Notes under the pieces: generated by a model | Databases searched by the model: none | The model's input: the letters and a program-made list of their open reading frames with translations, nothing else | Told to the model about the DNA's origin: nothing | In this document: positions 11,434 to 14,874 of the stretch, in pieces | Position numbering within the stretch: position 1 is the stretch's first letter | Layout of the letters: every line of letters starts with the position of its first letter | NCBI GenBank assembly: GCA_046704665.1 | Contig: JBJKRJ010000001.1 | Span: 57,255-121,254 of the forward strand | Direction: 5' to 3' | DNA: 64,000 nt | From: Thermoplasmata archaeon | Lineage (GTDB): Archaea > Thermoplasmatota > Thermoplasmata > Lutacidiplasmatales > UBA184 | Program-made: the position numbers and the translations under genes

Positions 11434-12318
11434 ATGTTGGACGACGAACCGCTGGCGCCGGCATGGCCGGTCGAGGGATCGGAGGAGTCCGAGCCCCTCC
11501 TACCGTTTCCCCGGGAGCTCCCGACCCCGTCCGCCCGTTCGGTCCGCCCCTCCTTCGGGCTCCGGCGCGTGGCGCGGCCCCCGCGGGTCCGTGCCGCGCC
11601 GCTCCTTCCCTCCGAACCGGCGTTCTTCCCCTGGCTGGCGCGCCGCTTCGCGCCGGGCGAGGTGACGCTCTGGGTCGGTCCCGGCGTGGCGGTGGAGCCG
11701 GTCCTCGAGCTCCTCTACGCGGGGAACGCCGTGGTCCGGGGTCGGCTCTCGCTCCTCGAAGGGGCGAACCGGTTCCACCCGTACCGGATCGGGGAGCTCG
11801 GCCGTGCGTTCGGGGTGGACGCGACCCGCACGCTGCAAGGGATCCGTCTCGCCCGTGCGTTCACCGCCTACCAGATGGTCGCCCTCGTCGACGGGTGGGC
11901 GAGCGAGGCGCGCCGGCATTCCCCGACCCTCCTCGTCGGCCACGACCTCCCGGCGCTCTTCACCGCCGACGAGGTCCCCCCCGAGGAGCGGACGGCGCTC
12001 CTTCGCCACGTCGCCCGCGGGCTCGCCCTCCTCCTTCGCGCGACCCGCCTTCCGCTCCTCCTCACGCTCGGACCCGGCGGGGCGGAGGGGTTCCCCGGCC
12101 TCGCCGACGAAGGCCCTCGCTGGTCGGACCTCATCACGTTCACCCGCGGTCCGTCGACCCTGCGCCTCCGCTCGTTCCGGGACGATGCGCGCATGACGCT
12201 CGTCCCGCGCCCCACGGGCCAGAAAGGCCTCCACGAGTTCGGCGACGTTTCCGCCGAGGAGGTGATCGCGTGGGCCGTACCGCCCCGACGTACCGCCAGG
12301 CGCTCGAGGAGCGGATGA
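11434..12318 (+). CDS. Hypothetical protein with RecA/RadB-like layout but degenerate Walker A ('GPGVAVEP', no Lys)
   Basis: 'TLWVGPGVAVEPVLELLYAG' aligns by eye with 'IxExxGxxGxGKTQ'. Walker-B-like 'YQMVALVDGWAS'. Codon usage is coding-like. The stop overlaps the downstream ATG as ATGA. Confidence 0.3.
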   Translation: MLDDEPLAPAWPVEGSEESEPLLPFPRELPTPSARSVRPSFGLRRVARPPRVRAAPLLPSEPAFFPWLARRFAPGEVTLWVGPGVAVEPVLELLYAGNAVVRGRLSLLEGANRFHPYRIGELGRAFGVDATRTLQGIRLARAFTAYQMVALVDGWASEARRHSPTLLVGHDLPALFTADEVPPEERTALLRHVARGLALLLRATRLPLLLTLGPGGAEGFPGLADEGPRWSDLITFTRGPSTLRLRSFRDDARMTLVPRPTGQKGLHEFGDVSAEEVIAWAVPPRRTARRSRSG

Positions 12319-12533
12319 AGCGCTGGGACGAGTTCGCGCGCCTCCTCACGACACCGGAGGAACGCGCCGCGTTCGACCTCGTCCGCACCGGGGCCCGACG
12401 CTACGCCGCCCAGGCGACGTACGTCGGAAGCCCCGACCTCCTCGAATCGATCCTCCTCTCGGTCCTCACCGACCTCGCCGCGCGGATCCGGGCGGAACCG
12501 CTCGAGCGGGCCGAACGGGCGGCCCGACGCTAG
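12270..12533 (+). CDS. Small helical protein (87 aa from GTG, or 72 aa from the ATG at 12315), unknown function
   Basis: 'GGAGGTGA' SD 5 nt before the GTG at 12270. Ends 4 nt before the PolB start. The N-terminal part of ORF call 11463..12533 is low-complexity and was discounted. Confidence 0.3.
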   Translation: MGRTAPTYRQALEERMKRWDEFARLLTTPEERAAFDLVRTGARRYAAQATYVGSPDLLESILLSVLTDLAARIRAEPLERAERAARR

Positions 12534-12537
12534 GACC

Positions 12538-14874
12538 GTGGACGGATCGGCCCGGACGCCCGACGGCTGGCTCCTCGACGTCACCGAGAGCGCGGACGGC
12601 CGCTCGGTCGTCCTCTGGGTGAAGTCGCGACGGACCGGGCGCGTCCGGAGGACCGCCGTGGAGTACCGCCCTCCGTTCCTCGTCGGAGGATCGCGCGCGG
12701 CGCTCACCGACCTCGCGCATCATCTCCGAACGCTCCCGACGGTCGCGGAGGTCACGCTCGCGTCGGGAGCTCCGTCGCTCTTCGACCGGCGGGTCCGCCC
12801 GGTCCTCACGGTCACTCCCGAGCGCAACCCGGTCCGCCGCACGCTCGCCCGGACCGTCGATGCGTTCGGCCGCTACGAGTCGTTCACGCTGTACGACGTC
12901 GACCTCGGCCCGCCGCAGCTCTACCACCTTTCCCACGCGCTCTATCCGTTCGCCCCGGTCGTCGGCACGGGCGCGTCGCTCGTCGCGACCGAGCCCGCCG
13001 AAACGATCGACTACGTCCCGCCGCCCCTCCGTTCGGCCCCGTTCGAGGTCCGCATCGCCGGCGAGCGACGGGGCCGCATCCCGCCGCCGTCCGGCCGCAT
13101 CGGTTCGGTGCGGCTCGGCGAGGCGACGCTCGAGGGGTCGGACGAGGGGGAGCTCCTGCGTGCGCTCGGGAGCGAGCTCGCGCGAAGCGACCCGGATCTC
13201 CTCCTGACGCAGGGCGGGGACTCGTTCGACCTTCCGTGGCTGTACCGGCGGGCGGCCGCGTGCGGGCTCGGGCCGGAGGAGTTCGCGCTCGGGCGGGAGC
13301 GGGTCGGCTTCGCGCCGGCCCGGCCCGGCCGCTCGTTCGAGTCGTACGGTCGGGTCCTCCATCGCTCGGCGCTGTATCCCGTTCCCGGTCGGTTCCACAT
13401 CGACCGGGAGAACTCCTTCCTCTACCGGGACGCGGAGATCGCCGGCCTGGTCGACGCGTCACGTCTCTCCCGGCTCTCTCTCCAGACCGTGGTACGCCAG
13501 TCCCCGGGGACCTGCTTCACGGCGATGGAGATGGCCCACGCCCTCGCGCTCGGGGCGCACGTCCCGTGGAAGAAGAACCGCCCCGAGGAGTTCCGGCGCG
13601 GCGACCGCCTGGTCGTCGCCGACCGGGGCGGGGTGATCTTCCTTCCCCCGGTCGGGCTCCACGACGCGGTCGAGGAGTTCGACTTCGCGAGCCTCTACCC
13701 GCACATCATGGTGCGGAAGAACCTCTCCGCCGAGACCCTCGAGTGCCGGTGCTGTCCCCGGAGCCCGATCCGTGCCCCCGGCCTCGGCTACCGCTCCTGC
13801 ACGCGACGGGTCGGTCTCATCCCCCGCACGCTCGCCCCTCTCCTCGCCCGGCGGCTCGCCTACAAGGCGGCGCTGAAGCGGCCGGGGATCCCCGCCGAGG
13901 AGGCAACCGAGCTCCGCCGGCGGGTCCGGATGCTCAAGTGGATCCTCGTCACCGCGTTCGGCTACCAGGGCTACCGGAACGCCCGCTTCGGGCGGATCGA
14001 GTGCCACGAGGCGATCAATGCCTACGCGCGCGCGCTCCTCGCCGCGCTCCTTCCCGAGGCCGAGCGCGCCGGCTACTCGGTCCTCCACGGGATCGTCGAT
14101 TCGCTCTGGCTGCGCCCTCTCGACCCTGCGCACCCGCCGGACGCCGAGTCGTTCGCCGAGAGGATGAGCGAGCGGTTCGACCTCCCGCTCGGCTACGAGG
14201 GCCGCTACCGCTGGATCGTCTTTCTGCCGGCGGTGACGCACGGCCTCGGGGTCCCGAACCGGTACTACGGTCTCTACGAGAACGGGGAGTACAAGCTCCG
14301 CGGGATCGGGGGCCGACGGCACGACACGACCGGTCTCGTCCGCCGGTTCGAGAGCGAGGTCCTCGCGCTCTTCCGGCGCGCGCGGAACGCCGAGCAGCTG
14401 CGCGCGCTCCTCCCGCGGGCCCTCGCGCGCGCCGACCTCCTCGCCGCGCGCCTCCGGGCCGGGGACTGGCCCGTCGAGGAGCTCCTCGTGAGCCACCGGA
14501 TCGGCCAGGCACCGCAGGCGTTCGTGACGTTCACCGACTCGGTCGCCGCCCTCCGCCAGCTCGCCGAGGCCGGGGCGCCGCGCGAGGCGGGCGAACTGGT
14601 CCGGTTCGTCCTCCTCGACCGGCGGAACCGCTCGTTCCGCCACCGTGTCCGGGTCGCCGAGCTCCTCACCGGCTCCGAACGGTACGACGTCGACGCCTAC
14701 CTCGAGCTCCTCGCCCGGGACGCCGAGACCCTCCTCGCCCCGTTCGGGATCGACCGGGCGACCCTCCTCGCACGGTGGGGCGCCGGAGCGCCTCCCGAGC
14801 GGGCCGCGTACCGTTCGCCCGAAGGGGCGTCCCAATCGGAGCTGCCGTTTGTGGCCGGGACCACCGGTACCTGA
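12538..14874 (+). CDS. Family-B DNA polymerase homologue with disrupted catalytic motifs (predicted polymerase-inactive; PolB2-like)
   Basis: Motif A '[10 protein letters not shown]' is intact. Motif B '[13 protein letters not shown]' has lost the N and Y of KxxxNSxYG. Motif C 'HGIVDS' has Ile in place of the first Asp of YGDTDS. Exo II '[10 protein letters not shown]' is present. Exo I 'FEVRIA' has lost the Glu of FDIET. The Cys cluster 'ECRCCPRS...YRSC' after motif A is as in archaeal PolBs. Confidence 0.8.
   Translation: [778 protein letters not shown]

Follow-up and report, generated by a model that had tools for sequence, protein, structure and literature searches.

A type 1a iRadA-PPB2-PolB2 operon on a Thermoplasmata chromosome, very probably encoding an exonuclease-deficient but competent extender polymerase

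The stretch of Thermoplasmata archaeon DNA considered here (64,000 nucleotides, assembly GCA_046704665.1, contig JBJKRJ010000001.1, positions 57,255 to 121,254 of the forward strand; the whole stretch is referred to as the window) carries between positions 11434 and 14874 three coupled genes for a RecA-like protein with degenerate ATPase motifs, a protein of 87 amino acids and a family-B DNA polymerase (PolB) with substituted catalytic motifs. The locus raises the question of whether these genes encode a dead module, the remnant of a mobile element or a working polymerase complex. An earlier reading of this DNA, made from its sequence alone, considered the polymerase dead and the trio not a described system. 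The operon, however, has been in the literature since 2013-2014, when it was reported with an inactivated RadA and arCOG07300 (Makarova 2014), and type 1a copies from Thermoplasmata are listed in the supplement of Timinskas 2025, who named the proteins iRadA and PPB2. The trio is very probably a chromosomal iRadA-PPB2-PolB2 operon of type 1a, whose PolB2 is exonuclease-deficient yet a competent extender within the 'PolB2 mutasome'. It is an ordinary member of a known system, of which the operon, the families, the likely complex and Thermoplasmata examples have already been published. The identification carries little weight as a discovery and re-derives observations made between 2008 and 2014. 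It does allow an annotation to be corrected, as in the source metagenome-assembled genomes (MAGs) the genes still go by the names 'hypothetical protein' or 'DNA polymerase domain-containing protein'. The genes, and the signal that couples the first two, are as follows.

11434..12318, + strand: iRadA (open reading frame, ORF, 1), 294 amino acids, from the core of its AlphaFold2 (AF2) model, Foldseek and profile matches
12270..12533, + strand: PPB2 (ORF2), 87 amino acids, from its MGRT arm, the helices of its AF2 model and the DUF8156 domain of its orthologues
12538..14874, + strand: PolB2 (ORF3), 778 amino acids, from NCBIfam, tblastn and PDB profile matches
12258..12265, + strand: Shine-Dalgarno sequence GGAGGTGA of PPB2, inside the 3' end of iRadA, read from the sequence

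The identities, folds, motif states, coupling, synteny and conservation of these genes are established here. All three ORFs, which had been placed correctly at these coordinates in the earlier reading, have a gene-like, coding-type G+C content at third codon positions of 0.89-0.92, in a window of ~70% G+C from a high-GC Thermoplasmata chromosome. ORF2 overlaps ORF1 by 49 nt (12270..12318) in another frame and its initiator is the GTG at 12270, with GGAGGTGA at 12258..12265 four bases 5' to it; ORF3 starts 4 nt past the stop of ORF2. The Shine-Dalgarno sequence had been recognized before; the ATGA at 12315..12318, noted there as a stop/ATG overlap, is an internal Met codon of ORF2 and not its start. 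The N-terminus generated from GTG 12270, MGRTAPTYR, is conserved in the orthologues. The tail of iRadA (AEEVIAW..PPRRTARRSRSG) is co-encoded with the PPB2 Shine-Dalgarno sequence and the MGRT arm, so that the overlapping gene may account for the conservation of the tail. Haloarchaeal iRadA and PPB2 overlap by just 14 nt.

PolB2 features a Pfam family-B polymerase domain (PF00136, E 3e-17). Among NCBIfam models it is matched best by NF004418 (E 2.5e-115) and NF004416 (E 5.4e-103), and other PolB models match at 1e-32 or weaker. NF004418 is also the model that names the haloarchaeal PolB2 proteins, which score above its cut-off, and haloarchaeal genes annotated as 'type B DNA-directed DNA polymerase' match the protein by tblastn with 33-35% identity over ~90% of its length (E 6e-82). 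A profile search of the PDB matches solved PolBs at E 7e-65, with motifs A, B and C aligned. The placement in the PolB2 group is based on these family-model scores and on shared derived motifs, and the motif states were taken from HMMER alignments to solved Thermococcales PolBs. Conservation was measured in 80 related Thermoplasmata genomes with 61-83% PolB2 identity, in which counts of gene order use the loci with enough flank; PolB2 orthologues overall are 61-91% identical. The polymerase motifs are located as follows.

13564..13632, + strand: segment P343..A361 followed by D362-R363-G-G, the PolB2 'D(K/R)' motif, from conservation
13681..13710, + strand: motif A, kept relative to DFxSLYPSII, with catalytic Asp382 and steric-gate Tyr387
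13936..13965, + strand: motif B, relative to KILANSxYGY with Lys467 kept, Asn replaced by Val471 and Tyr by Phe474
14086..14103, + strand: motif C, HGIVDS, relative to YxDTDG with Tyr replaced by His517, the first Asp by Ile519 and the second, Asp521, kept

The substitutions of Asn and Tyr in motif B and of the first Asp in motif C by Ile, which had been aligned by eye, are confirmed by the HMMER alignments, and motif A is kept. These altered motifs are a property of the family. K[WF][ILV]L[VI]..FGYQG in motif B is found in 80 of the 80 orthologues and likewise in Halobacteria, and HG[ILM]VDS[LM]W in motif C is found in 79 of 80. Among 150 representatives of the PolB2 family the motif C triad is [ILMV]xD, most commonly IVD, and DxD was seen in none. 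[ASGP][DE]RGG is present in all 80 orthologues, and DR or DK in 118 of the 150 representatives; no variation is seen between Thermoplasmata and Halobacteria at P343, W344, E350, F352, L358, D362 and R363. By homology, the P343..A361 segment is predicted to be a beta-alpha element that docks on iRadA, a role that follows Timinskas 2025. Two side observations concern these motifs. The steric-gate Tyr387 (SLYP; 13696..13698) is Phe (SLFP) in 24 of 80 orthologues (loci L005-L084), and several family members of ~1250-1300 aa (P0363, P0365, P0389, P0390, P0403 and others) have a match that is split near query residue 474 in motif B, which suggests intein insertions.

Motif C has lost its Tyr and first Asp, motif B its Asn, and the Exo I pair is not intact, which could mean that PolB2 is non-catalytic and serves with iRadA and PPB2 as a DNA-binding scaffold with a structural or regulatory role at replication forks. 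This view of an 'inactivated polymerase' was proposed by Rogozin 2008, who described the altered YGDTD and missing Exo I of this polymerase family, and no report of a biochemical assay of any euryarchaeal PolB2 was found in a literature search that was incomplete. However, Dpo2 from S. islandicus and S. solfataricus shows this kind of motif C substitution and still polymerizes robustly. Feng 2020, 2022 reported that S. islandicus Dpo2 has no exonuclease activity and extends mismatched and lesion-paired termini, that it is damage-inducible and that it is required for induced mutagenesis. In S. islandicus Dpo2 the motif C triad is 401-IID, compared with IVD here, so that both have a hydrophobic residue for the first Asp, and its 253-DK, spaced similarly from motif C, corresponds to 362-DR here. 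Additionally, neither Thermoplasmata nor Halobacteria show any change at Asp382, Asp521, Lys467 and Arg462, and HGIVDSLW, KWILVxxFGYQG and ADRGG are identical or nearly so in the two classes at ~34% overall identity and recur across the 150 representatives. This pattern is expected from selection on a working active site. The polymerase-dead scaffold of the earlier reading is therefore unlikely, as Dpo2 with its IID triad is active and there is no variation here in the Asp of motif A, the second Asp of motif C or the Lys of motif B.

The remnants of the exonuclease site are located as follows.

13042..13053, + strand: Exo I remnant F169-E-V-R172, in which Glu stands for the Asp of FDIE and Arg for its Glu, from a phmmer alignment to 5mdn_A
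13213..13242, + strand: Exo II remnant, Asn replaced by Gly and Phe-Asp kept, from alignments to solved PolBs

The change of Exo I from FDIE to FEVR, which was also part of the sequence-only reading, is supported by a phmmer alignment of PolB2 residues 131-353 to 5mdn_A, in which PPPLRVLAFDIEV pairs with the Exo I segment of 5mdn_A and FDIE is placed at FEVR. A profile alignment to Thermococcus PolB of low posterior probability places Exo I at VATE instead. The D-x-E pair is broken under both placements, and the last Exo I residue varies among orthologues (R/H/Q/T/E). PolB2 keeps the Exo II Asp231 and an Exo III-like F294-x-x-x-D298. The domain is more decayed in Dpo2, in which the exonuclease motifs are absent (Feng 2022, Timinskas 2025), whereas the protein here, at 778 aa, features a near full-length N-terminal region with the Exo II Phe-Asp. 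The haloarchaeal PolB2 proteins are ~700 aa and lack a ~28-aa segment of the exonuclease domain; the FEVR segment and the Exo II Phe-Asp are both lost.

The AF2 model of iRadA has pLDDT values (predicted local distance difference test) above 90 for the core, residues ~56-260, and Foldseek searches of the PDB with this model return RAD51, DMC1 and RadA as top matches, with E values of 5e-12 to 1e-10, a probability of 1.0 and ~200 aligned columns. A profile of 45 iRadA family sequences matches P. furiosus RadA at E 8e-9, and iRadA matches its haloarchaeal operon counterpart at E 3.7e-6 by hhalign. Single-sequence matches to Rad51/RadA are weak, and TIGR02238 (Dmc1) and TIGR02236 (RadA) score far below their cut-offs. 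The N-terminal ~55 aa are predicted to be disordered, with pLDDT values of ~43-56, no secondary structure and poor conservation, and the helical (helix-hairpin-helix, HhH) N-terminal domain of RadA is missing. The motifs of iRadA are as follows.

11677..11700, + strand: degenerate P-loop G82-PGVAVE-P89, in which Glu and Pro stand for the Lys and Thr of GxxxxGKT, from the model and conservation
11926..11946, + strand: Walker B-equivalent strand T165-LLVGH-D171, Asp replaced by invariant His170, from a profile alignment to LLIVDS of RadA
12220..12243, + strand: PIP-like (PCNA-interacting peptide) motif Q263-KGLHEF-G270, 24 residues from the C-terminus, from conservation

The earlier description of ORF1 as RecA-like without the Walker A lysine is borne out by the RAD51/RadA fold and by the dead P-loop GPGVAVEP. 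The P-loop remnant comes after strand 77-81 and ahead of helix 84-100 in the model; of its residues, G82 and P89 never vary, and A86 and E88 hardly do. The segment MVALVDGWAS, which had been taken for Walker B, is instead helix 145-153 and aligns upstream of the Walker B strand of RadA. The true strand is T165-LLVGH-D171, which coincides with strand 166-170 of the model. An identity as RadB was considered for ORF1 and rejected, since RadB has intact Walker A and B motifs and both are degenerate here. In the C-terminal region, Q263, G265 and F269 are invariant, and 67 of 75 iRadA orthologues contain Q.G[LIMV]..F. QRGMEEFG and QRGLEEFG at matching positions were scored as PCNA motifs in the Timinskas 2025 supplement, and Q263-KGLHEF-G270 is a putative PCNA-binding motif of the PIP-like kind. 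The arCOGs of iRadA are arCOG07763/04294/08101, and many members, not all, feature a C-terminal PCNA motif.

ORF2 is PPB2 (arCOG07300 / Pfam DUF8156), as judged from its arm, its predicted helices and its orthologues. The earlier suggestion of a small helical partner is supported by the AF2 model of the 87-aa protein, which predicts three helices (8-23, 29-48 and 55-86) with a mean pLDDT of 76. Preceding the helices is the N-terminal arm M1-GRTAPTY-R9, with conserved Arg3 and Arg9; [MVL]GRT....R is found in 72 of 75 PPB2 orthologues, which are 83-85 aa and begin with [MV]GRT. PF26485, which is DUF8156, is carried by PPB2 orthologues at 76-94% identity, and the window PPB2 itself had no Pfam match in the profile scan. 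A PPB2 profile matches a gene of 93 aa that a Halalkalicoccus plasmid carries between its iRadA and PolB2 genes (hhalign probability 93.7, E 1.9e-7).

Comparison with the published operons reveals the same architecture. The Thermoplasmata MAG operons of Timinskas 2025 (MCI4365834.1/MCI4365833.1/MCI4365832.1; MCI4338934-36) have the same order, '1a (iRadA-PPB2-PolB2)', the same DUF72 neighbour and the same motif B-C region with HGIVDSLWL, scored 'IVD'. Their iRadA has QRGMEEFG at 261, 24 residues from the end, where the protein here has QKGLHEFG, the common form being Q[RK]G[LM].EFG. The divergence from these operons is at the sequence level only. The Sulfolobus Dpo2 system shares the MGRT arm of PPB2, an ATPase-dead RadA core and the lack of an intact Exo I. 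The haloarchaeal loci that were compared (Haladaptatus sp. YSMS36 plasmid, Halalkalicoccus jeotgali plasmid 1 and H. volcanii HVO_A0065) have the same iRadA-PPB2-PolB2 order with overlapping genes. On the haloarchaeal plasmids a Cdc6 gene is followed by a 225-aa gene, an 87-aa gene that starts with VGRTNPTYR and then the type B polymerase, so that these operons are preceded by Cdc6/Cdc18 and not by DUF72 as here. Haloarchaeal PPB2 starts with [MV]GRTNPTYR, and HGIVDSLW, KWILVSxFGYQG and ADRGG of the haloarchaeal PolB2 are identical or nearly identical to the motifs here. At 225 aa, haloarchaeal iRadA is without the ~55-aa disordered N-terminus, and the Q.G[LIM]..F motif is missing from the one haloarchaeal iRadA that was read (L001).

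Sulfolobus biochemistry and published AlphaFold models suggest how the trio would work, including its polymerase activity, complex architecture, PCNA binding and damage induction. Timinskas 2025 modelled a predicted heteropentameric PolB2:iRadA:PPB2x3 complex, the 'PolB2 mutasome', and described the MGRT arm, the D(K/R) motif, a Rad51-like docking element and clamp motifs that are mostly on iRadA. By homology, the PolB2 here would use two-metal catalysis through Asp382 of motif A and Asp521, the second Asp of motif C, and would extend mismatched or lesion-paired primer ends after another polymerase has inserted a base. Its partners in the complex would be a single iRadA and a trimer of PPB2; iRadA, as an ATPase-dead RadA core, would dock on the PolB2 segment before Asp362-Arg363, and the MGRTAPTYR arm of PPB2 would insert between PolB2 and iRadA, beside the DNA. 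The QKGLHEFG motif of iRadA may tether this assembly to PCNA. Damage tolerance, one of several roles guessed at in the sequence-only reading, fits this literature.

The organization resembles that of other translesion systems. E. coli Pol V (UmuD'2C-RecA-ATP) and ImuA-ImuB-DnaE2 follow the same logic of a translesion polymerase, a RecA-family protein, small subunits and the sliding clamp. The polymerases of these bacterial mutasomes are non-homologous (Y or C versus B family), and the RecA of Pol V is an active recombinase and not a dedicated dead paralogue, so that the likeness is one of analogy and not of membership. In ImuA, the RecA-like partner is also degenerate. Eukaryotic Pol zeta is likewise a family-B polymerase that has no proofreading and extends mismatched or lesion-paired termini; it differs in its Rev7 and Pol31/Pol32 subunits and its C-terminal metal-binding domain, and is not orthologous.

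The order of the three genes is kept in relatives. iRadA and PPB2 lie directly upstream of PolB2 on the same strand in 70 of 74 genomes with enough flank, and 3 more have an insertion before PolB2. The gene context was additionally read in a 75%-identical relative. Two neighbours are of repair type.

10545..11333, + strand: DUF72 gene, Pfam PF01904, E 9.5e-63

In 55 of 61 related loci DUF72 precedes the operon in the same orientation. It is a TIM-barrel family that has been related in the literature to UV-damage endonuclease, and it is enriched near polB2 (Timinskas 2025). A methylpurine-DNA glycosylase (MPG) gene at 19711..20292 (Pfam E 2.6e-45) is found ~5 kb downstream of PolB2 and is kept in 47 of 58 loci. 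DUF72 next to the operon and the glycosylase gene ~5 kb downstream are in keeping with a neighbourhood of damage processing.

The same gene order bears on the suggestion that the operon is a domesticated or decaying remnant of a self-replicating element, with a PolB of casposon, plasmid or viral origin. Archaeal mobile elements often carry family-B polymerases, and the haloarchaeal copies of this operon are on megaplasmids. In contrast, the block here has the same place in the chromosome in ~70 genomes, with the V-ATPase operon on one side and the L37e/LSM genes on the other, and no mobile-element genes, integrase, Cas1 or terminal-repeat features were seen near the locus or among the window genes, the others of which are housekeeping genes such as gyrA and carbamoyl-phosphate synthase. 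The base composition of the locus matches that of the host, and amino-acid conservation is high. The median orthologue identity is 86% for PPB2, 75% for PolB2 and 67% for iRadA, compared with 49% for the neighbouring GNAT gene and 64% for MPG, for example. The operon genes are not decaying, since their median identity equals or exceeds that of most neighbours. The synteny conserved in ~70 genomes and the lack of mobile-element genes nearby make a remnant, as the sequence-only reading had also offered, scarcely credible.

A third alternative, a module for replication initiation or origin regulation that acts with Orc1/Cdc6, was raised by Makarova 2014. Many euryarchaeal polB2 operons, including the haloarchaeal loci described above, adjoin a cdc6/orc gene, which is the usual archaeal neighbour. 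No orc1/cdc6 is near the locus here or in the relative examined, and the neighbours are of repair type (DUF72, MPG). The polB2-orc association is itself explained because the Sulfolobus paralogue Orc1-2 is a damage-response transcription factor. An initiation module is thus very improbable for this locus, although somewhat less so than a remnant of an element.

Several observations weigh against the assignment to a competent extender within the mutasome. The PolB2 score is below the curated NCBIfam cut-offs (386 compared with 692 bits for NF004418). The activities of PolB2 could differ from those of Dpo2, because the motif B Asn is lost (Val471) and because more of the exonuclease domain is retained. 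Activity is known for Sulfolobus Dpo2 only; the complex, the PCNA contact and damage induction are argued by homology. H. volcanii polB2 can be deleted. The adjacent orc1/cdc6 gene is absent here and in the relative examined, and Sulfolobus dpo2 is induced via Orc1-2 and an ANTTTC element. Finally, the link to the glycosylase may be functional or may be mere conserved gene order in the lineage.

The region upstream of iRadA is unusually conserved for a genome of ~72% GC. An alignment of 23 orthologous intergenic regions reveals the following features.

11333..11387, + strand: conserved promoter region of the operon, inferred from the alignment
11333..11347: palindrome GGAACG-N4-CGTTCC, which overlaps the DUF72 stop
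11352..11360, + strand: box CCGTTTCAC
11376..11387, + strand: TATA-like sequence CGCTTTAGAGCG

Across related loci totalling 979 kb, CGCTTTAGA is located just upstream of iRadA in 49 of its 51 copies and GTTTCA[AG]C in 41 of its 61, and elsewhere in the window the promoter boxes occur no more often than by chance. The conserved region is probably the operon's own TATA-type promoter. The GTTTCA box was compared with the Sulfolobus ANTTTC / Orc1-2 AGTTTCR damage element; the resemblance is faint, a 5-mer (the GTTTC core) only, and a relationship is not claimed.

PolB2 additionally features a cysteine cluster in the loop that follows motif A.

13744..13800, + strand: four-cysteine cluster C403-x-C405-C406-x14-C421, from orthologue conservation

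All four cysteines are present in 80 of 80 orthologues and in 105 of 123 diverse PolB2 representatives. The equivalent loop of Thermococcus PolB has two cysteines, and these align with C406 and C421. The third cysteine of the cluster is His, itself a metal ligand, in haloarchaea (CxCH...C). No mention of the cluster was found in the main texts of the PolB2 papers that were searched. The pattern of conservation tentatively suggests an unremarked metal-binding site, for Zn or possibly Fe-S, in PolB2 polymerases including this one, a possibility that is on balance doubtful. If it exists, a site near the finger hinge could tie the activity of a damage-tolerance polymerase to its metal content or redox state, in the manner of CysX in Pol epsilon. 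The clade offers concrete material for testing, with its near full-length exonuclease domain, the clamp motif on iRadA, the Cys4 cluster and the conserved promoter.

The wider surroundings of the operon had been described as paralogous pairs of HEAT-repeat and glycosyltransferase genes on both sides. The flanking HEAT-repeat proteins (7497..10430 and 14645..16390) are indeed paralogous, with 48% identity (E 3e-102), but the glycosyltransferases are not: nothing on the downstream side corresponds to the upstream GT2, and the neighbours there are a GNAT gene and a 467-aa protein. The 467-aa protein (17288..18691) has no Pfam match, is located downstream of GNAT in most relatives with a median identity of 58%, and is dissimilar to the upstream GT2. 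The downstream HEAT protein is conserved in relatives, and the upstream HEAT and GT2 pair is found in only a few, which suggests that a duplication or insertion specific to the lineage placed the pair between the ferredoxin gene and DUF72. In one related genome the V-ATPase A subunit (L003 2088..4607) carries an intein (Pfam Intein_splicing). Three MAGs give two PolB2 loci each with the same flanks (L025/L038, L013/L052 and L011/L074), which more likely represent mixed strains in one bin than true paralogues.

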